Origin: Thermoplasmatota archaeon | Lineage (GTDB): Archaea; Thermoplasmatota; Thermoplasmata; UBA10834 | Reading direction: 5' to 3' | NCBI GenBank assembly: GCA_040751795.1 | Contig: JBFMHR010000002.1 | Location: 64,001-128,000 of the forward strand | Length of the DNA stretch: 64,000 nt | In this document: in pieces, positions 8,055-50,328 of the stretch | Layout: the number at the start of each line of letters is the position of its first letter | Position numbering within the stretch: the first letter of the stretch is position 1 | The notes under the pieces: generated by a model | The model's input: the letters and a program-made list of their open reading frames with translations, nothing else | Told to the model about the DNA's origin: nothing | The model's database searches: none | Program-made: the position numbers and the translations under genes

Positions 8055-8695
8055 TGAAAGTGATCAAGTGTCCGGACAGGAAGGAGTGCAAGAGGTGCGA
8101 CCTAGCCGCAGGCGAGATGGACGAGGTCCTGGCCGCCCTCAAGGCGGGGGAGCTGGTAGTGTTCCCCACAGACACGCTCTACGGCCTCGGCGCCGACCCG
8201 TTCAAGGAGGCGTCGGTCAAGAAGGTCTTCGTGGCCAAGAACCGCCCCTTCGACATGCCCCTCTCCATAGCCGTCAGCAACGAGAAGATGATGGAGAGCG
8301 TGGCCGTGCTGAACGACAACGCCAGGAAGCTCATCAGGAAGTTCATGCCCGGGCCGATAACCATAATGCTCACCAAGAAGCCGACCATCCCCGACATACT
8401 CACATCGGGTTCAAACACCGTCGGGATCAGGATACCGGAGCACCCCCTGGCGCTCGCCCTGATCGAGAGGTTCGGGCCCATCACGGCGACGAGCGCGAAC
8501 CTCCACTCGCACAAGGACCCGACCGACGCCAGCCTCCCCAAGAAGGACCTGAAGGACCACGTGAAGATCTGCATCGACTGCGGGAAGACGAAGTACTCAG
8601 CGCCGTCGACCATCATCGACGTCTCGGACGGGGAGGTCGAGGTGATCAGGAAGGGCGTCGTTTCTCAGGAGGAGATCGAGGACGCCCTCCGTTAG
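8054..8695 (+). CDS. tsaC: L-threonylcarbamoyladenylate synthase (TsaC/YrdC, no Sua5 C-terminal domain)
   Basis: FPTDTLYGL, KNRP, PGPIT, GIRIP, TSAN, PSTIID. Confidence 0.93.
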   Translation: MKVIKCPDRKECKRCDLAAGEMDEVLAALKAGELVVFPTDTLYGLGADPFKEASVKKVFVAKNRPFDMPLSIAVSNEKMMESVAVLNDNARKLIRKFMPGPITIMLTKKPTIPDILTSGSNTVGIRIPEHPLALALIERFGPITATSANLHSHKDPTDASLPKKDLKDHVKICIDCGKTKYSAPSTIIDVSDGEVEVIRKGVVSQEEIEDALR

Positions 8696-9575
8696 CGAAG
8701 AGGCCCTGAAGAAGTACAGGCAGGCCGGCGCGGTCACCCGCGAGGCGAGGGAGTTCGCCGTCTCGCACGTCAAGCCCGGGATGGGCGCGCTGGCCCTGGC
8801 AGAGGCGGTCGAGGGCGCCATCCGCTCGCGGGGCGCCTCCTGCGCGTTCCCCGTCAACATCGGGGTGAACTCCGTCGCCGCCCACTACACGCCGTCGAGG
8901 ACGGACGACATCGCCCTCAGGGTGGGCGACATCGTGAAGATCGACCTCGGGGCGCACGTCGACGGGTACCCCGCCGACACGTCGGTGACGGTCGAACTGG
9001 GGACGCGCAACAACCAGAGGCTCATCGCCTGCGCGGAGGAGGCCCTCAGGATGGCGATCGAGATGGTCGCCCCGGGGACGTCCACCTCCGCCATCGGCGA
9101 CACGGTGGAGAGGGCGATAAGGTCGGCCGGCTACAGGCCGGTGGAGAACCTCACCGGCCACAGCATGGAGCGCTTCAACCTCCATGCCGGCCTGAGCGTG
9201 CCCAGCGTCAGGACGAGGGAGGACCACTCGGTCGAGGAGGGGATGGTCATAGCCATTGAGCCGTTCTCCACCACCGGCAAGGGGAAGGTCAAGGGCGCGT
9301 CGAGGGGCAACATCTACAGGCTCGTCAGGGACAGGAGGGCCCCCGCCGACATATCGGCCATGTTCTCGAAGATGCAGTCCCGCTTCGGCTCGCTCCCGTT
9401 CGCATCGAGGTGGTGCGACGAACTCCACCCCAACGCCCAGCCCCTCCTGTCCAAGATGCTCAGGATGGGGATGGTGATGAACTACCCCGTCCTGGTCGAG
9501 GTCGCGGACGGCCTTGTGGCCCAGGCGGAGCACTCGGTCCTCGTGACGAAAGACGGGTGCCTGGTCCTGACCTGA
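8682..9575 (+). CDS. map: Methionine aminopeptidase type II; start is non-canonical (ACG at 8682 or CTG at 8706), first ATG at 8781
   Basis: AFPVN...AAHYTP, KIDLGAHVDG..DTS, NLTGH, AIEPF, QAEHS; the conserved first helix (EEALKKYRQAG) lies upstream of the first ATG. Confidence 0.93.
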   Translation, partial: TPSVSEEALKKYRQAGAVTREAREFAVSHVKPGMGALALAEAVEGAIRSRGASCAFPVNIGVNSVAAHYTPSRTDDIALRVGDIVKIDLGAHVDGYPADTSVTVELGTRNNQRLIACAEEALRMAIEMVAPGTSTSAIGDTVERAIRSAGYRPVENLTGHSMERFNLHAGLSVPSVRTREDHSVEEGMVIAIEPFSTTGKGKVKGASRGNIYRLVRDRRAPADISAMFSKMQSRFGSLPFASRWCDELHPNAQPLLSKMLRMGMVMNYPVLVEVADGLVAQAEHSVLVTKDGCLVLT

Positions 9576-17156: not shown

Positions 17157-18052
17157 GCCGTCCCCCTCCCCTCCTTTCCTTCCCCGTTGAACCAGTGGAG
17201 GAACTCCTCGGTGGTCGAGTACTCCACCCCGACGTCCTTGCACACGCGCATGGCCGCGTCCCTCGACTGCTCAGGTGTCTCGAAGCCGAGGCCTATCCCC
17301 GCGAGCGGGGTCGTGGCGTCCTTCAGGTTGACGATCCTGCTGGTCTTGAACATCTGCCTGAGGCCGATCGAGGTGTGGAGCCTGCAGATCCCCTCCACGA
17401 CCCCGGTGTTCACGAATATCAGGTCGAAGGCGCTGGAGGGATACCTCTGCCTCAGGAGGGAGAACACGTTGCAGTTCATGGCTGGAATCCCTTCTCCGAC
17501 CATCCTCGGGAGCGTGTAGTCGCTCTCGAGCCTCGTGGCGTCGAAGGTGTGCTTGGGGGCCACGATGTAGTCGTAGTCACCCTCCAAGAAGTCGTCCGGC
17601 CCGATGGCGTCGGTGCCGAAGCTCCTCTCCATGTCCGAGGGGAGGAACCAGGGTACCTCTGCCCCGTCCTGGTAGTAGATCTCCTTGGGGACAATCATCC
17701 CGCGGGCGCGCCGTCTCAGGTGCCTCCCGATGTCCTCGGTCAACGCTGGGCTCATCGTCCTCCCTCCGAGTCTCATGGCCTCGCCAGCCGCCGACACGAA
17801 GTACTCGAAGTCCGGCCCTGTGGAAGAACGAAGGACCACGTTGTGGGCGGGATACAGCCCGCTGTTGATGGCGAACTCCTTCGATTGGACCGGGTGCGCG
17901 TCCGAGCTGAATATGACGAGGTCGGCGTGCTCGACCACCTTCCCCGCGTTCTCCTTCTGGTCGCGCGTCGTCCCGCAGTAGAACGAGCCGTCCTCGTCGA
18001 CGAAGGACCTCGACCAGTCGATGAGGTTGACGATCAGCACCTGCTCCTTCAT
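17153..18052 (-). CDS. pncA: Divergent isochorismatase-fold hydrolase, probable nicotinamidase
   Basis: IDW..SFV..DGS, SDAHP, YPAHNV, PKH, GVVEGIC, DAT; position between pncB and nadK. Confidence 0.65.
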   Translation of the reverse strand: MKEQVLIVNLIDWSRSFVDEDGSFYCGTTRDQKENAGKVVEHADLVIFSSDAHPVQSKEFAINSGLYPAHNVVLRSSTGPDFEYFVSAAGEAMRLGGRTMSPALTEDIGRHLRRRARGMIVPKEIYYQDGAEVPWFLPSDMERSFGTDAIGPDDFLEGDYDYIVAPKHTFDATRLESDYTLPRMVGEGIPAMNCNVFSLLRQRYPSSAFDLIFVNTGVVEGICRLHTSIGLRQMFKTSRIVNLKDATTPLAGIGLGFETPEQSRDAAMRVCKDVGVEYSTTEEFLHWFNGEGKEGRGTA

Positions 18053-19422
18053 GCGGTCGCCCCCTTTATCCTGGAGACAGTCTCGCAGGTGAGCGCGTCG
18101 AGCTCGTCCGAGACCGCCACCTCGTAGACCTCTCGTCCCGCGATGTCCCTGAGGCCTTCCGGGAGCGCCATCCTGTTGCCGGTCGCATAGGCTTGGACAT
18201 CGGCGAGCCTGGGAGTGTCGGCGAGCAGCCTGCCACCGTCGACGACCTGGACGAGCAGGGGCTGGAGTTCCCCGTCGAGCTCGCCGCGCATCCCGAGGAC
18301 GTCCCTGACCGGCGTCTCCCCTTCGAGGAGCCTGTAAACCTGCTTCCTCCCGGGGAAGGTGCTCTTGTCCTTGGACAGCTTCAGCTTCGGGGTCGTCCGT
18401 CCGTCCTTCTCTATCTCGGCGAGTTTGTAGACCCCTCCGATGGAGGGGGAGTCCGCCGAGAGGACCAGCTCCGTCCCGATGCCGAAGATGTCGATCTCCG
18501 CACCGGCTTCCAGCATCTCGGCGATCTTGTACTCGTTGAGGTCGTTGGTGGCGAATATCCTGCCGTCCTTCTTGCCCGCGGCGTCCATTATGGCCCGCAC
18601 TTCCTTGCTCAGCGCGGCGATGTCCCCCGAGTCGAGCCTCACACCCTTTATCCGGCCAGGCAGCCTTGCCGCGGCTTCGGCCCCCTGGACCGTGTCATAT
18701 GTGTCGATGAGGGCGAGCGTATCCTCCCCGTAGATTTGGAAGTACGCCTTGAACGCCTCGTCCTCGGTGTCGAAGCTCATGACCCACGAGTGCGCATGGG
18801 TCCCGTACGAAGGGATCCCGAAGATCGCATCTGCAAGGACGTTCGAGGTGCCCATCGCACCGCCTATGAATGCCGCCCTCGCCGCCCTGAGGGCGGCTCC
18901 GACGTCCGTCCTCCTCATCCCGAACTCGATGATTGAGCGCCCCTTGGCCACTTCGACGCACCGGGCCGCCTTGGTGGCGATCTTCGTCTGGTGGTTGTAG
19001 CACATCAGCAGGTATGTCTCCGCCACCTGCGCCTCGATTATGGGCGCTTCGACCGTCATGAGCGGTTCGTTGCCGAATGCGATCGTCCCTTCTGGCATGG
19101 CCCAGGCATCCCCCGTGAACCTGAAGTCCGCGAGGTATTCCCAGAACGATTCCCTCGCACCCTTGAACGTGGGCTTGTCCCTCAGCAGTTCGATGTCGTC
19201 GTCCGTGAACCGGACATTGGTGAGGTAGTGAAGCGCCTGCTCCAGCCCGGCGACCATCATGTACGACCTGTTCTTCGGCAGCTTGCGGACGAATAGGTCG
19301 AACACGGCGATCTCATCCGTCCTCCCCATGGCGTGGTAGCCGTTGGCCATGGTGAGTTGGTAGAGGTCTGTGGCGATCCCGAGTCTCCCTTCAGGAACTA
19401 GCCCCGATTCCGGTCTTCGCGT
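18049..19422 (-). CDS. pncB: Nicotinate phosphoribosyltransferase; probable ACG start at 19422 (first ATG at 19350 is inside TDLYQLTM)
   Basis: ATDLYQLTM, FDLFVRKLP, EFGMRR, GTSNV, GTHAHSW, LIDTYD, GVRLDSGD, FGIGT, GGVYKL. Confidence 0.95.
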   Translation of the reverse strand, partial: TRRPESGLVPEGRLGIATDLYQLTMANGYHAMGRTDEIAVFDLFVRKLPKNRSYMMVAGLEQALHYLTNVRFTDDDIELLRDKPTFKGARESFWEYLADFRFTGDAWAMPEGTIAFGNEPLMTVEAPIIEAQVAETYLLMCYNHQTKIATKAARCVEVAKGRSIIEFGMRRTDVGAALRAARAAFIGGAMGTSNVLADAIFGIPSYGTHAHSWVMSFDTEDEAFKAYFQIYGEDTLALIDTYDTVQGAEAAARLPGRIKGVRLDSGDIAALSKEVRAIMDAAGKKDGRIFATNDLNEYKIAEMLEAGAEIDIFGIGTELVLSADSPSIGGVYKLAEIEKDGRTTPKLKLSKDKSTFPGRKQVYRLLEGETPVRDVLGMRGELDGELQPLLVQVVDGGRLLADTPRLADVQAYATGNRMALPEGLRDIAGREVYEVAVSDELDALTCETVSRIKGATA

Positions 19423-19435
19423 GTTACCACCTCCG

Positions 19436-47595: not shown

Positions 47596-48630
47596 ATGGT
47601 CTCCGTGTGCATGCTCACCGAGCTCGAGTCCTACAGGGGCATCATACCGTACAAGAACCCAGGTGGGATGGGGACCAACGCCCCTATGGTCGCGAGGGAG
47701 CTGGAGCGGCTCGGGTGCAGGGTGGTCTTCAACCGGCCGGAGGAGGACTGCGACGTCCTCCACGTGCACAGCCAGCTCCCGCGCTCCTTCGCGTGGGCGC
47801 TGAGGAGGCGCATGGAGGGGAGGCCCCTGGTGGTACACGGCCGCCACCTCCCGGAGCTGGTCAAGGGCGGGTTCAAGGGGGGCTCGCTGATCTACCCGCT
47901 GGTGCGCCGCTACTCCGTCTACTTCTACAACCTCGGCGACGTGGTGCTCGGCGCCACGCCGTACGTGGCGAAGTCGCTCGCGGGCGACGGCGTGAGGGGG
48001 CCGTTCAAGGTCATCCCCAACGGCATCAACCGCGAGGTGTTCGCCAGGGACGCGGGGCGCGGCGCCGAGTTCAGGGAGCGCTGGGGCGTCCGGCCCGGGG
48101 AGAAGCTGGTGGTCAGCGTCGGCCTGCGCATCCCGCGCAAGGGGGTCGACACCTTCGTGAACATGTCCTCCATCCTCTCGAGGCGTGACGACCTCAGGTT
48201 CGTGTGGGTCGGGGAGAGCGAGCCCCTGCTCGAGGACGCCCTGGACGGGCTCGACAGGGGCAGGGTCCTCTTCCCCGGGCACGTGCCGTTCCAGGACATA
48301 GTCGGGGTGTACTCCGCCGCCGACGTCTTCGTGTTCCCGACCAGGGCCGAGAGCTACGGGAACGTCATGCTCGAGGCGGCCAGCTGCGGCTGCCCGCTGC
48401 TCATCAGGGACATCCCCGTCTACGAGGGGTGGGTCCGCGACGGCGAGCACTGCCTGAAGGCGCGGACGGACGAGGAGTTCGCGCGGAAGCTGGAGTCCAT
48501 GGTGGACGACGCGCAGCTCCGCGAGAGGATGTCCAGGGGCGCCCTGGCCCTCGCCGAGGAGCACGACATCAAGAAGACCGCGGCGATGCTGAAGGAACTG
48601 TACGAGGAACTGGCGAAGGGGAGGGTGTAG
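47596..48630 (+). CDS. Glycosyltransferase family 4
   Basis: VIPNGI, RKGVD, ADVFVFPTRAESYGNVMLEAASCG. Confidence 0.92.
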   Translation: MVSVCMLTELESYRGIIPYKNPGGMGTNAPMVARELERLGCRVVFNRPEEDCDVLHVHSQLPRSFAWALRRRMEGRPLVVHGRHLPELVKGGFKGGSLIYPLVRRYSVYFYNLGDVVLGATPYVAKSLAGDGVRGPFKVIPNGINREVFARDAGRGAEFRERWGVRPGEKLVVSVGLRIPRKGVDTFVNMSSILSRRDDLRFVWVGESEPLLEDALDGLDRGRVLFPGHVPFQDIVGVYSAADVFVFPTRAESYGNVMLEAASCGCPLLIRDIPVYEGWVRDGEHCLKARTDEEFARKLESMVDDAQLRERMSRGALALAEEHDIKKTAAMLKELYEELAKGRV

Positions 48631-48631
48631 C

Positions 48632-49228
48632 CTGCTCGGTGAGGACATCATATCCCTGTTCTCGTCCCTCGGCGACGCGGGGATGCTTCTCGCTCTCGTG
48701 GCCATCATACTCATAGACGGGACCGGGTTCCCCACGCTGCCCGAGGTGTGGATGGTCTTCATCTTCGGCGCCAACCCCGACTCGTTCACCTGGGGCGTCC
48801 TCGTGGTGATAGTGTCGAGCCTCGCCAGCCTCGGCGGCAACTTCATCCTCTACTCGCTGGTGAGGGCGGCCAGGCTCCCGAACTGGATCCAGAGGCGGAT
48901 GAAGCAGTACACGGACTTCCTGATCGTCAAGGACGAGCGCCTCCTCCTCCTGAACAGGGTGGCCCCCGTCGTGCCGTACACAGGCGCCTTCATGGCCGTC
49001 TGCAACTGGGACCTCCGCAAGTGCACCCTGTACCTCATCGTAGGCGCCCTGGCGAAGTCTTCGGTCGTCGTCGTCCTGTCATGGCTGAGCTACGACAACC
49101 TCAGGCAGGAGGTCGCCCCATGGGTCGCGCTGGGCGCCGTGGCGGTGGTCATCGTCGCCAGCATTGTCGCATCATTAATCTACAAGAGACGGCTTCGCCG
49201 GAGGGGGGAGCTCCCACGATCTCAGTGA
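48632..49228 (+). CDS. DedA/VTT-like membrane protein; probable CTG start at 48632 (first ATG 48683)
   Basis: FPTLPE, GN..LY, NRVAPVVP pattern; in-frame CTG 1 nt after the upstream TAG with SD-like GGGGAGGGTG. Confidence 0.7.
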   Translation: MLGEDIISLFSSLGDAGMLLALVAIILIDGTGFPTLPEVWMVFIFGANPDSFTWGVLVVIVSSLASLGGNFILYSLVRAARLPNWIQRRMKQYTDFLIVKDERLLLLNRVAPVVPYTGAFMAVCNWDLRKCTLYLIVGALAKSSVVVVLSWLSYDNLRQEVAPWVALGAVAVVIVASIVASLIYKRRLRRRGELPRSQ

Positions 49229-50328
49229 TCATCCCGACCTACAACGAGAAGGACAACCTGGAGGAGCTCGTGCGCAGGACGAGCGCCGCGTGCTCCGCCA
49301 CCAAGATGGGCCACGAGATCGTCATCGTGGACGACAACAGCCCCGACGGGACGGGGGCGCTGGCGGAGGAGCTCGGGAAGAGCTTCAGCGTCAAGGTCGT
49401 GCACAGGGCGGGCAAGCTCGGCCTCTCGACTGCGGTGCTGGACGGGTTCAAGGCAGCCTCGGGTTCCGTGCTCGTCGTGATGGACGCGGACCTCAGCCAC
49501 CCGCCGGAGAAGATCGCCGAGATGGTCGAGCGCATAGTCAAGGGCGGCGCGGACATGGTCATCGGGAGCAGGTACGTCCCCGGCGGCCAGGTCGAGAACT
49601 GGCCCCTCCACAGGAAGCTCATCTCGAAGGGGGCGACCCTCCTCGCCAGGGGGCTCACGAAGGTGAAGGACCCGATGAGCGGCTTCTTCGCCGTCAAGCG
49701 CGAGGCCGTGGAGGGGGTCGAGCTCAACCCGATAGGCTACAAGATCGGCCTCGAGGTCCTGGTCAAGGGGAAGGTGTCGAAGGTGGAGGAGGTACCCATC
49801 ACCTTCGCGGACCGCAAGGCCGGCAAGAGCAAGCTGGGCGCGTCCGTGACCCTGAAGTACATCGACCACTGCATCTCCCTGTACGAGCACAGGAAGCCCT
49901 GGCTCGCGAAGTACCTCAAGTTCGCGTTCGTGGGCGGGATAGGGACGCTGATCAACCTCGCCATCTTCTGGACCTCGATCGAGTTCTTCTACGTCAACGA
50001 GTTCGTCGCGCTTACGCTGGCGTTCGTCGTGGCGGACACGAACAACTTCATCTGGAACAGGTGGTGGACGTTCAGGTCGAAGGGGAAGATCCACTTCCAG
50101 TACCCCCAGTTCCTCGTGGTCAGCGCCGACGGGCTGATGCTCAACATCATACTCTACTCGGCGTTCACGGACCACCTATTCCCGGCGCTGGGCCTCGTGG
50201 AGGACAGGGCCAGCCTCTACCAGGTGTCCGCGCAGGTCCTCTGCATCTTCCTCGTGAGCGTGTTCAACTTCTTCGCCAACGCGCTCTGGACCTTCGAGGC
50301 CGACATGCGGCCTAGACGTCGGCCTTAG
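49216..50328 (+). CDS. Polyprenol-phosphate mannosyltransferase (GT2, Dpm1-like) fused to GtrA; start ACG 49216 or GTG 49225
   Basis: ISVIIPTYNE, VDDNSPDGT, MDADLSHPP, IGSRY, DPMSGFF, GKSK, then KFAFVGGIG...NNFIWNRWWTF (GtrA). Confidence 0.92.
   Translation, partial: TISVIIPTYNEKDNLEELVRRTSAACSATKMGHEIVIVDDNSPDGTGALAEELGKSFSVKVVHRAGKLGLSTAVLDGFKAASGSVLVVMDADLSHPPEKIAEMVERIVKGGADMVIGSRYVPGGQVENWPLHRKLISKGATLLARGLTKVKDPMSGFFAVKREAVEGVELNPIGYKIGLEVLVKGKVSKVEEVPITFADRKAGKSKLGASVTLKYIDHCISLYEHRKPWLAKYLKFAFVGGIGTLINLAIFWTSIEFFYVNEFVALTLAFVVADTNNFIWNRWWTFRSKGKIHFQYPQFLVVSADGLMLNIILYSAFTDHLFPALGLVEDRASLYQVSAQVLCIFLVSVFNFFANALWTFEADMRPRRRP

Follow-up and report, generated by a model that had tools for sequence, protein, structure and literature searches.

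Two adjacent genes of a Thermoplasmata archaeon raise a simple question: at which codons does their translation begin? They code for a DedA-like membrane protein and a Dpm1-like glycosyltransferase, and are found behind a GT4 glycosyltransferase gene in a window of 64,000 nucleotides, which is the whole stretch of DNA that was analysed. The codon expected as a start is CTG in one gene and ACG in the other. An earlier note on this DNA preferred frequent ACG/CTG initiation as the explanation, and offered mRNA C-to-U editing as an alternative. We consider it probable that CTG 48632 and ACG 49216 are real starts, and that they would be read directly by the ordinary initiator Met-tRNA at codons positioned by a Shine-Dalgarno (SD) sequence. 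The basis is the position of these codons, their conservation, their exchange with canonical starts and their genome-wide enrichment.

Where translation of the DedA-like and Dpm1-like genes probably begins

Table 1. Features of the locus and of two other genes of the window with candidate near-cognate starts.
Feature	Position	Strand	Details
map (methionine aminopeptidase)	8667..9575	+	AGGAGG 8667-8672, ACG 8682-8684, stop 9573-9575
pncB (nicotinate phosphoribosyltransferase)	18049..19434	-	GGAGGTG 19434-19428, ACG 19422-19420, stop 18051-18049
GT4 glycosyltransferase gene	47596..48630	+	ATG 47596, stop TAG 48628-48630; from the ORF list
SD sequence GGAGG, DedA-like gene	48620..48624	+	7 nt ahead of CTG
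Probable CTG start codon, DedA-like gene	48632..48634	+	
DedA-like (VTT-domain) membrane protein gene	48632..49228	+	Pfam VTT_dom; orthologs at the same position in related loci
ATG	48683..48685	+	first canonical in-frame codon of the DedA frame; internal Met, conserved in all orthologs
SD region, Dpm1-like gene	49200..49210	+	GGAGG 49200-49204, then a G run (GGAGGGGGGAG)
Probable ACG start codon, Dpm1-like gene	49216..49218	+	11 nt after GGAGG 49200-49204
Dpm1-like GT2 polyprenyl-phosphate glycosyltransferase gene, with C-terminal GtrA/DPMS membrane domain	49216..50328	+	Pfam
GTGA	49225..49228	+	alternative GTG (codon 4, 49225-49227) overlapping the DedA stop TGA 49226-49228

All coordinates of the locus have been verified by a script and by reading the sequence. 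They confirm the arrangement that the earlier note had described: the distance of ACG 49216 from its GGAGG, the overlap of GTG 49225 with the DedA stop, and the single C-to-T change at 49217 that would yield ATGA, where the DedA frame now has CGA (49217-49219). At both junctions the upstream stop and the downstream start are only a few bases apart: the GT4 TAG is 1 nt upstream of the DedA CTG, and the DedA TGA is close to the Dpm1 ACG. The SD sequence before ACG 49216, at 11 nt, is past the optimum of 7-9 nt. Other genera have GG(G/A)GGTGA in this region at 9 nt, a sequence which contains the DedA stop.

In NCBIfam, the GT4 protein is best matched by two families, IagA/BgsA-type and diacylglycerol glucosyltransferase, each with a score under the cut-off. 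The DedA-like protein matches VTT_dom (PF09335) with E=5e-5 and 24.2 bits, under the 33.9-bit cut-off, and has no NCBIfam match. Both the GT2 domain and the GtrA/DPMS membrane domain are present in the Dpm1-like protein, over the cut-off: PF00535 covers residues 3-166 (E=7e-38, 130.7 bits) and PF04138 residues 235-360 (E=1.5e-21, 77.2 bits). No NCBIfam equivalog reaches its cut-off for this protein; the best match, below it, is AglJ-like. Initiation at GTG 49225 would give M-IIPTYNE as the N-terminus and initiation at ATG 48683 would give M-LLALVAI; proteins started at ACG and CTG would include LGEDIISLFSSLGDAG.

The comparison of orthologs bears out the proposal that the DedA-like gene begins at CTG 48632. 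The codon is CTG in all ten loci of the genus, and the onset of coding potential is found exactly at 48632. The aligned codon in other genera is ATG in nine cases, TTG in four and GTG in one, and five genes begin one or two codons upstream. The 17 codons ahead of ATG 48683 present 3-6 synonymous versus 0-4 amino acid changes per pair, and this stretch is, judging from such substitutions, under purifying selection. Protein-level conservation of these codons, together with the exchange at the CTG codon, makes ATG 48683 unlikely as a conserved start, a possibility that had also been raised.

The first codon of the Dpm1-like gene is ACG in 26 of 29 distinct orthologous loci, GCG in two and ATC in one; ATG, GTG and TTG are absent from these 29 loci. 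At the aligned codon, one outgroup ortholog (L026) has ATG; it is the sole ortholog with a canonical start there. Threonine at codon 1 is thus written ACG in 26 of 26 cases, and the conserved threonine at codon 8 is written with all four codons (ACC 7, ACG 4, ACA 17, ACT 1). Codon 3 is serine in all loci and is written by four synonymous codons, therefore it appears to be translated. In six loci a TGA stands in frame three codons ahead of the ACG (TGA nnn nnn ACG), four loci have no ATG, GTG or TTG within codons 1-8, and one locus, L012, combines both features.

The GTG at 49225, which had been suggested as a possible real start, is unlikely to be a conserved one, because codon 4 is GTG in just 14 of the 29 loci (GTA in 5, GTC in 10). 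Pfam is unable to separate ACG 49216 from GTG 49225, since the domain starts at residue 3. GTG 49225 may contribute to initiation in this genome.

Probable near-cognate starts in other genes and other genomes

The count of four near-cognate starts in the window (DedA, Dpm1, map and pncB) is correct. The ACG of map is found 9 nt after AGGAGG. The first canonical codon, ATG 8781, corresponds to residue 34 of the ACG-started protein, in which Pfam M24 starts at residue 11. Among 23 map loci of the order, 20 have ACG, two have ATG at the same codon and one is masked; seven outgroup loci have ATG. In pncB, the NAPRTase_N domain extends from residue 17, and the first canonical codon, ATG 19350, is residue 25, within a conserved ..TDLYQLTMANGY motif. 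The region upstream of its ACG is AT-rich and intergenic, with no upstream gene on the same strand. Orthologs of pncB were not found in 39 of the 40 relatives searched, so its start has no ortholog comparison.

Other genes of the genome present the same feature. The start codon of an amidohydrolase is CTG in 17 of 29 loci, TTG in 7 and ATG in 5. An AcnX-small/NUDIX gene has ACG in 23 loci and GCG in one within the family, with ATG or TTG outside the family. In total, GCG, which is not a near-cognate, takes the place of ACG in three orthologous loci. In AcnX-small, CDP-alcohol transferase, ArsR, UbiD, map and pncB, and also in a molybdopterin oxidoreductase (three Fe-S cysteines), a Pfam or NCBIfam domain already starts ahead of the first canonical codon. 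Two full-length NCBIfam models are aligned from profile position 2-4 at residue 3.

A genome-wide tabulation of the codons behind SD motifs, which the earlier note had recommended, has been carried out. The genome has 2.05 Mb, 65% GC and 93% completeness. The 3' end of its 16S rRNA is ...GGATCACCTCCT, and SD spacing peaks at 7-9 nt. The gene finder and the estimate of coding onset are ad hoc tools made for this analysis. In 198 of 1778 genes they place the coding onset four or more codons ahead of the first canonical one. The test was restricted to SD-preceded codons (n=98) in genes whose coding signal precedes any canonical start. CTG accounts for 12 of them (OR 6.2, p=4.6e-6) and ACG for 7 (OR 3.1, p=0.013). 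The remaining codons of interest are not enriched among the 98 (ATA 1, ATC 1, ATT 0, AAG 2, AGG 4, GCG 3, with OR 0.9 for GCG), nor are the synonyms ACC, ACA, ACT, CTC, CTT and CTA. CTG and ACG are therefore the only near-cognates enriched, and the result holds with another implementation of the test and with another definition of the SD motif. GAC also appeared as enriched (7/98, p=0.014), and on inspection it is mostly the codon directly ahead of a real ATG. Some of the 19 CTG/ACG sites listed look like false positives, for example C23:4146, C12:352640 and C23:219314.

The enrichment appears only when the test is limited to genes without an upstream canonical start. An unrestricted SD-anchored count at all gene starts gives no enrichment, with 16 of 971 for ACG (ratio 0.96) and 29 for CTG (ratio 1.31), because chance SD-like motifs swamp the signal in a genome with 65% GC. 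Conservation among orthologs or exchange with canonical starts, plus the enrichment of CTG and ACG behind SD motifs, indicate that near-cognate starts are found beyond chance. The SD enrichment and the exchange of the same codon with ATG, GTG or TTG in orthologs thus support frequent ACG/CTG initiation, as had been preferred.

We have also sampled two ingroup and two outgroup genomes. ACG is enriched in both outgroups: 4/38 versus 16/1161 in 800 kb of G082 (p=0.003), and 2/16 versus 5/844 in 400 kb of G110 (p=0.0065). Pfam gave no decision on the starts of four candidates from G082, and orthologs were compared instead. One codon of its GT4 gene is ACG in 3 of 27 loci, ATG in 19, GTG in 3, CTG in 1 and TTG in 1. 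Similarly, one G110 gene has ACG in 2 of 16 loci, ATG in 12, GTG in 1 and TTG in 1. The ingroup sample G018 (400 kb) presents one CTG and one ACG among 34, with no enrichment. CTG starts are found 13 times in 2.45 Mb of the order versus none in 1.2 Mb of the two outgroups, and a CTG start is present in another family (G269). The frequent use of these starts, as had been proposed for this lineage, is supported, but the ACG habit is not peculiar to it: it is also seen in two further families of the class. We estimate that ACG and CTG starts correspond to roughly one gene in 100 in the class. Our literature searches turned up no publication that describes ACG starts in archaea.

Alternative explanations and the initiator tRNA

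It might be argued that the odd codons are not starts: translation would begin at the next canonical codon, and the conserved codons upstream would be untranslated or have another role, such as ribosome binding. GTG 49225 is only three codons downstream of ACG, it forms a common coupling arrangement with the DedA stop, and the estimated coding onset of the Dpm1-like gene is precisely 49225; ATG 48683 is also kept in all DedA orthologs. Nevertheless, GTG is missing from codon 4 in 15 of 29 Dpm1 loci, four loci have no canonical codon to offer in codons 1-8, and the serine at codon 3 changes only synonymously. The DedA stretch before 48683 is conserved as protein, and in other genera ATG, TTG or GTG occupies precisely the place of the CTG. 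In map, AcnX-small and the molybdoenzyme, a start at the first canonical codon would cost essential parts of the domain. We find this explanation quite unlikely. Ribosomes leaving the upstream gene might instead restart nearby with a relaxed choice of codon, so that odd codons would work only in operons. The short distances fit such termination-reinitiation: the GT4 stop is 1 nt ahead of the DedA CTG, the DedA stop is 6 nt before the Dpm1 ACG in other genera or 8-10 nt after it in this genus, and the SD sequences of map and AcnX-small are within upstream coding sequence. It is at odds with the isolated ACG of pncB, which follows an AT-rich intergenic region and has no gene before it on its strand, and with the CTG/TTG start of the amidohydrolase, which is preceded by a conserved TTTAATACC promoter-like motif. 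In all cases the SD sequence is at the usual spacing, like that of ordinary starts, and reinitiation seems improbable to us.

The suggestion of site-specific mRNA editing is very improbable. C-to-U changes before translation, as in plant organelles, would convert ACG to AUG, CUG to UUG and GCG to GUG. In fact, a single C-to-U change would make every enriched non-canonical start canonical; ATA, ATC, ATT, AAG and AGG, which no such change turns into a canonical start, are not enriched; and the GCG found in place of ACG in three orthologous loci would become GUG. On the other hand, GCG is not enriched genome-wide (3/98, OR 0.9), a near-cognate ATC or ATA adjoins it in the GCG loci, and a codon ranking like that of eukaryotes accounts for the set of codons without editing. 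There is no common local motif around the C to be edited, because its flanks differ (A-C-G versus N-C-T). The search for an orphan cytidine deaminase, which had been proposed, has been run on the 93%-complete genome. It gave a single gene with the cytidine-deaminase fold, a 163-aa protein of the dCMP-deaminase/ComEB type (PF00383 and PF14437) without an RNA-binding domain. No match to the APOBEC-like PF08210 was found in this 93%-complete genome, and the lack of matches to DYW (PF14432) is uninformative, since its control was also silent. Profile searches of the 93%-complete genome thus found no RNA-editing cytidine deaminase. Four DNA contig runs, from related strains, were compared over 48400-49500; in the 40 rows listed, with 297 more beyond them, neither 48632-48634 nor 49216-49218 differs, which adds little. 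No site-specific mRNA editing is known in archaea, and editing of start codons in Thermoplasmata would, if true, be the first case.

Returning to direct reading by initiator tRNA, Met-tRNAi (anticodon CAU) would read CUG and ACG with one mismatch and without RNA editing, once the SD sequence has brought the near-cognate codon to the small subunit's P site. The output would probably be below that of AUG. The same mechanism would apply to map, pncB and at least 18 genes of the 2.05-Mb genome. If the habit is shared across Thermoplasmata, the start codons of the class would therefore be AUG, GUG, UUG, CUG and ACG, a set resembling the eukaryotic near-cognate ranking.

The tRNA-Met genes detected by aragorn are one of initiator type and one elongator with an intron, and the tRNA-Leu(CAG) is normal. 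No further initiator-like tRNA with a CGU or CAG anticodon turned up by aragorn in a tRNA set which is incomplete (34-37 genes), and in the complete relative G018 the initiator tRNA finds a single full-length match. Loss of aIF1 was considered and rejected: 35 of 41 genomes have aIF1, and the 21 of high quality are all among them. A change at 16S G1338/A1339 was also rejected; the sequence at what are presumably these positions, following E. coli numbering, is GGA as in E. coli.

A peculiar feature is found in the initiator tRNA. Canonical archaeal initiator tRNAs have A1:U72 and the pairs G29:C41, G30:C40 and G31:C39 (PMC6412873). The initiator tRNA of this order has A1:U72, but departs from the canonical form in its anticodon stem, TCAGG/CCTGA, that is A29:U41, G30:C40 and G31:C39. 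It is the ortholog of the canonical initiator tRNAs of the outgroups. The TCAGG/CCTGA stem is found in 22 of the 22 genomes of the order with this tRNA called, and GGG/CCC in four outgroups. Of the order's 34 genomes, 31 carry the A29:U41 motif, versus 1 of 217 others of the class. Two ingroup matches to the canonical motif GGGCTCATAACCC were discarded, they are located outside tRNAs.

The replacement of the first of the three conserved G:C pairs could be what permits ACG and CUG starts. The variant is fixed in the order, and the samples with CTG starts, 13 in 2.45 Mb versus 0 in 1.2 Mb, are all from it. Altered G:C pairs of the initiator lower the discrimination against CUG in E. coli (PMC11497404) and slightly lower start-codon discrimination in yeast (PMC3950347). 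The effect in yeast is modest: G29:C41 swaps raise the use of UUG by less than 30% (PMC3950347). Other results disagree with such a cause. Two outgroup families with the canonical tRNA have a similar density of ACG starts (four in 0.8 Mb, two in 0.4 Mb, versus 19 sites in the 2.05 Mb of this genome), a CTG start is found in another family (G269), and the ingroup genome G018 is not enriched in 400 kb. The same pipeline applied to outgroup DNA thus gives no support to A29:U41 as the cause of ACG starts, for which the variant is not required, and we regard it as an unlikely explanation. It may have widened the acceptance of CUG starts in the order.

Significance and comparison with known systems

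To our knowledge, the standard prokaryotic code table includes no ACG start, and gene callers generally use ATG, GTG and TTG only. If ACG and CTG are ordinary starts in Thermoplasmata, about one gene in 100 is for this reason probably misannotated: its N-terminus is cut short, its start is wrong or it is taken for a pseudogene. Essential genes are affected, such as methionine aminopeptidase. If this is true, an archaeal initiation apparatus that has aIF1, aIF1A and aIF2 in common with eukaryotes would prefer the near-cognates of eukaryotes (CUG, ACG) rather than those of bacteria (AUU, AUC, AUA), which bears on the evolution of start-codon stringency. Thermoplasmata include cultivable members. 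The order-specific initiator tRNA, without one of three G:C pairs held to be universal, is a second natural variant.

Several known systems resemble the starts described here. Stop and start codons overlap in prokaryotic operons (ATGA, GTGA), which couples translation of both genes, and at both junctions of our locus the upstream stop and the next start are likewise only a few bases apart. Unlike these cases, the start is non-canonical, and ACG is also found after intergenic regions (pncB). In plant organelles, ACG start sites are edited to AUG. The likeness is a genomic ACG where a start is expected; the difference is that no editing-type deaminase was found here in the 93%-complete genome. 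Literature matches for ACG start codons are dominated by papers on organelle genomes. A match on a viral tRNA-Thr(CGU) was set aside as irrelevant to ACG starts.

Among archaea, ribosome profiling of Haloferax volcanii placed about 30% of putative alternative sites at near-cognate codons (PMC7261190). Those sites were set aside by the authors (PMC7261190); they are alternative sites and not, as ours would be, conserved sole starts of conserved genes. The rare bacterial starts (CTG, ATT, ATC and ATA; NCBI table 11) are similar in that messages are SD-led and CTG is accepted (bioRxiv 063800). ACG is absent from the annotated bacterial starts and has an activity class of 0.1-1% as a start in E. 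coli (bioRxiv 063800). In contrast, ACG is enriched here, and ATA, ATC and ATT are not.

The closest likeness in codon choice is found in eukaryotes, where the efficiency of near-cognates is given as CUG first, next GUG, then ACG, then AUU (PMC5666671). Yeast ALA1 starts at ACG and GRS1 at UUG: the codons are the same, and Met-tRNAi is used (PMC5666671). The factors e/aIF1, e/aIF1A and e/aIF2 are also homologous (PMC6412873). Two features separate our case from the eukaryotic one. The codon is placed by a Shine-Dalgarno sequence and not by scanning, and it would be the sole start of ordinary housekeeping genes such as map, kept over order-level divergence.

Start codons at the GT4-DedA-Dpm1 locus

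The source genome (2.05 Mb in 53 contigs, 64.7% GC, 93% complete) has uncultured Thermoplasmata as its relatives. Its GT4 gene is followed by a DedA-like gene and then directly by a Dpm1-like GT2 gene; this order is found in the window (at 47596-50328) and in all 29 related loci. Members of the DedA family recycle polyprenyl phosphates, a role that would presumably fit a dolichyl-phosphate sugar pathway at this locus.

Coordinates of the main features (window positions, except for the last two lines; G000 is the genome which holds the window)
Feature	Coordinates	Strand	Source
GT4 glycosyltransferase gene	ATG 47596 to TAG 48630	+	gene list, domain scan
DedA-like membrane protein gene	CTG 48632, ends TGA 49226-49228	+, same strand as GT4	
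GT2 glycosyltransferase with C-terminal GtrA/DPMS membrane domain (Dpm1-like)	ACG 49216, end 50328	+	domain scan
Initiator tRNA	G000, contig C50:9274-9349 (locus L249:101-176)		
aIF1	G000, contig C50:51818-52033 (locus L240)		

The earlier note had placed the DedA-like start at CTG 48632 and the Dpm1-like start at an ACG, 11 nt after GGAGG, with a CGA of the DedA frame at 49217 and GTG 49225 overlapping the DedA stop. All these details hold when checked by script: CTG 48632 lies 7 nt after GGAGG 48620-48624, ACG 49216 lies 11 nt after GGAGG 49200-49204, and the DedA frame has CGA at 49217-49219.

For the Dpm1-like start, 46 loci (L001-L023 and L045-L067) were reduced to 29 distinct junctions by dropping those without an N-terminus and merging identical ones. 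Codon 1 is ACG in 26 of them, GCG in two and ATC in one: A canonical start (ATG, GTG or TTG) is never found. Codon 2 is ATC in 28 cases and GTC in the other. Codon 3 is an invariant serine written with several synonymous codons (TCA 19, TCC 8, TCG 1, TCT 1), so it is translated in the Dpm1 frame. Codon 4 corresponds to GTG 49225, which the earlier note had allowed might be the real start. Its overlap with the DedA stop favours that caveat, but a start at this position is not conserved, since only 14 of the 29 junctions have GTG there (GTA 5, GTC 10). An in-frame TGA nnn nnn ACG is found at the Dpm1 start of six loci, and four loci have no ATG, GTG or TTG in codons 1-8. One locus, L012, shows both features, so its Dpm1 gene lacks any canonical start.

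Threonine at codon 1 is always ACG (26/26), whereas the conserved threonine at codon 8 has mixed codons (ACC 7, ACG 4, ACA 17, ACT 1), so the third base of codon 1 is constrained at the nucleotide level. This is what one expects of a start codon, not of a plain threonine codon. An ortholog from another family (L026, 44% identical) has ATG at the codon aligned to the ACG. The Dpm1 Shine-Dalgarno (SD) sequence of other genera is GG(G/A)GGTGA, 9 nt before the ACG, with the DedA stop inside it. The T of this sequence is changed to G in the source genus, and DedA extends to GTGA.

Two other features of these loci were observed. At the DedA/Dpm1 junction (49203-49208 in the window, and the corresponding position of L001-L067) several genera have a run of 6 to 9 G, whose length differs between genomes; other genera have GGGGTGA with the DedA stop. 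GCG, which is not a near-cognate (a codon one change away from ATG), replaces the ACG of relatives in L003/L046 and L015/L050 (Dpm1) and in L202 (AcnX-small); the neighbouring codon is ATC or ATA in each.

The DedA frame contains no ATG, GTG or TTG from the upstream stop up to ATG 48683, and a codon-usage gene finder places the coding onset exactly at 48632. All 10 loci of the source genus share the CTG; in other genera the codon aligned to it is ATG (9 loci), TTG (4) or GTG (1). In the remaining five loci the start (ATG or GTG) precedes the aligned position by one or two codons. Compared with the window, the 10 CTG loci show 3-6 synonymous and 0-4 amino acid changes over the 17 codons from the CTG to ATG 48683.

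ACG and CTG starts in other genes

The near-cognate starts which the earlier note had counted for map and pncB are also there; both are ACG, with SD motifs upstream. In map, AGGAGG precedes ACG 8682 by 9 nt. The M24 domain starts from residue 11, and no canonical ATG occurs before residue 34. The start codon in 23 loci of the order is ACG in 20 and ATG in two (L142 and L143, same codon), the other one being N-masked. Seven outgroup loci have an ATG a few codons downstream of the ACG position. A relative's genome (G003) contains map twice, on contigs C91 and C3, with proteins 88% and 86% identical to that of the window; either a duplication or a bin of mixed strains could explain this.

The pncB gene (- strand) has ACG 19422 after GGAGGTG, with an AT-rich upstream intergenic region, and its first ATG falls inside the conserved TDLYQLTMANGY motif. 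Among the 41 genomes searched, pncB (window 18049-19434) is found only in the source genome and in one distant relative (1/40 relatives). It is probably a recent acquisition, and its start is already ACG.

Many of the ACG and CTG starts counted over the whole genome (below) have support from protein domains. In map, pncB, an ArsR regulator, a UbiD-type enzyme and a molybdopterin oxidoreductase, the Pfam domain starts ahead of the first canonical codon; in the oxidoreductase, the three leading Fe-S cysteines also precede the first ATG. The same is found in AcnX-small/NUDIX, with the domain starting at residue 24 and the first ATG at 69, and in a CDP-alcohol phosphatidyltransferase (domain from residue 26, first canonical codon at 58). 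For two full-length NCBIfam models, the alignment to the ACG- or CTG-started protein begins at residue 3, with profile position 4 or 2. The amidohydrolase start is CTG in 17, TTG in 7 and ATG in 5 of 29 loci. For AcnX-small, 23 of the 24 loci of the family have ACG and one has GCG; outside the family, five loci have ATG and one TTG. The orthologs of both genes confirm an exchange of odd and canonical starts.

Some 30 nt upstream of the CTG/TTG start of the amidohydrolase (L157-L182; G000 C1:343195), a TTTAATACC(C/G)TT motif resembling an archaeal TATA box is conserved. Being so near, it suggests that the transcript leader may be very short; in that case the mRNA might lack the SD-like GAGGTGA.

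Starts were also counted over the whole genome. Our own simple gene finder (stop-to-stop ORFs, codon log-odds, greedy selection) called 1794 genes, and SD spacing was calibrated on ATG starts, with a peak 7-9 nt after GGAGG. An unrestricted codon count behind SD motifs in the whole genome shows no enrichment. A restricted set was formed from the 198 genes, of 1778, in which the coding onset precedes the first canonical codon by four codons or more. In-frame codons within eight codons of the onset were counted, an SD being at least five matching bases at 6-9 nt: 98 codons have one and 2414 do not. In this set, CTG is found 12 times behind an SD vs 53 times without (OR 6.2, p=4.6e-6), and ACG 7 vs 59 times (OR 3.1, p=0.013). 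The other near-cognates are not enriched among the 98 codons (ATA 1, ATC 1, ATT 0, AAG 2, AGG 4); neither are GCG (3) nor, in the same restricted set, the synonyms ACC, ACA, ACT, CTC, CTT and CTA. The tabulation which the earlier note had proposed thus singles out CTG and ACG within the restricted set. GAC (7 vs 60) was discarded as a start: On inspection it is mostly the codon preceding a real ATG.

Re-implemented with another training start, the test gives CTG 12 and ACG 7 of 101 codons; a register-based SD definition gives CTG 10 (p=1.9e-4) and ACG 8 (p=0.0038) of 101. The matches in the restricted count belong to 12 genes for CTG and 6 for ACG; a few of these 18 look false and genes with imperfect SD are missed, so 18 is a rough figure. 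Five further likely ACG/CTG starts of the source genome (C34:224886-225773, C34:45353-46576, C45:29928-30461, C1:264999-265880 and C1:333728-334540) fall outside the strict count, with imperfect SD (GGGGTG, GGGGGT). Judged by N-terminal motifs, the proteins resemble HAM1/ITPase, PurP, LeuD, a small GTPase and a GGGP-synthase-like protein.

Initiator tRNA, aIF1 and other families

The initiator tRNA of the source genome has A1:U72 and a TCAGG/CCTGA anticodon stem, in which A29:U41 replaces the first of three G:C pairs. These pairs are counted among the main features of initiator tRNAs across all domains of life (PMC6412873; PMC7949028). The TCAGG/CCTGA stem is found in all 22 genomes of the order with this tRNA called by aragorn; four outgroups have GGG/CCC. 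Among 251 genomes sampled from the class, the variant motif CAGGCTCATAACCTG is found in 28/31 genomes of the family and 3/3 of the sister family (31/34 of the order) vs 1/217 of the others. Canonical GGGCTCATAACCC is found in 159 of these 217 (a count including the unpublished genomes G116 and G219); its matches in 2/34 genomes of the order were rejected, both lying outside tRNAs.

In aIF1, threonine precedes the basic RRYGK loop (TDTRRYGK) in 20/20 ingroup sequences; the residue is K, R, S or N in 10 outgroups. The residue after GGT is Y, F or A in the order vs V, C or I in outgroups. Both positions presumably lie in or near loops facing the initiator tRNA anticodon, a placement taken partly from a figure legend (PMC6412873).

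Since the anticodon-stem G:C pairs are linked to start-codon discrimination in the passages cited (PMC11497404; PMC3950347), the same pipeline was run on relatives' DNA. In 800 kb of G082, a genome of another family with the canonical tRNA, ACG is found in 4/38 codons behind SD vs 16/1161 (p=0.003), and CTG in 0/38 vs 33. In G110 (a third family, 38% GC, 400 kb) ACG is found in 2/16 vs 5/844 (p=0.0065) and CTG 0. No enrichment is found in 400 kb of G018, another genus of the same order (CTG 1 and ACG 1 of 34). One codon of the G082 GT4 gene in 27 loci is ATG 19, ACG 3, GTG 3, CTG 1 and TTG 1; a G110 gene of 123 aa in 16 loci has ATG 12, ACG 2, GTG 1 and TTG 1. Comparison of these orthologs confirms one predicted ACG start in each genome. 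ACG starts are thus a trait of the class and do not need the A29:U41 tRNA. The ACG/CTG initiation that the earlier note ascribed to this lineage is supported, but it is not limited to it, as the families of G082 and G110 also use ACG.

The pipeline finds 13 CTG sites in 2.45 Mb from two genomes of the order vs none in 1.2 Mb of outgroup DNA. Each side has two genomes, and the GT4 ortholog comparison gives one CTG start in a further family; the association of CTG starts with the order, and hence a possible tie to the A29:U41 tRNA, should therefore be taken as a lead, not as a result.

Probable near-cognate initiation and less likely readings

Position, ortholog conservation and genome-wide enrichment bear out the CTG and ACG starts. 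The simplest account is that Met-tRNAi would read SD-positioned ACG and CUG directly. Methionine would then be the first residue, and output from these starts would lie below that from AUG. Termination-reinitiation, in which translation of the preceding gene drives the odd starts, is improbable: pncB has no upstream gene, so reinitiation is not general. C-to-U editing of the mRNA, which would create the starts, is less probable still: No editing enzyme was found in the 93%-complete genome, and the sites have no common sequence context.

On direct reading by Met-tRNAi, the Thermoplasmata starts are near-cognate initiation of a kind already known. They have practical weight for annotation and offer a clear experimental handle on archaeal start-codon stringency. 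Our literature search, with most subscription journals outside its reach, found no paper on ACG starts in archaea; among the matches listed, those on ACG start codons concern eukaryotes, their viruses or organelles. The passages cited describe archaeal starts as AUG, GUG and UUG (PMC4705826; PMC4153887, on Methanomassiliicoccales). In Haloferax profiling, about 30% of alternative sites are at near-cognates, which the authors set aside (PMC7261190, in the part cited). Factors aIF1, aIF1A and aIF2 are described as common to archaea and eukaryotes (PMC6412873, PMC4705826). In E. coli, according to the part cited of bioRxiv 063800, AUA, AUC, AUU and CUG reach 1-2% of AUG and ACG is in the 0.1-1% class; the annotated bacterial starts given there include CTG, ATT, ATC and ATA but not ACG. 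The start-codon set of Thermoplasmata differs from this E. coli ranking.
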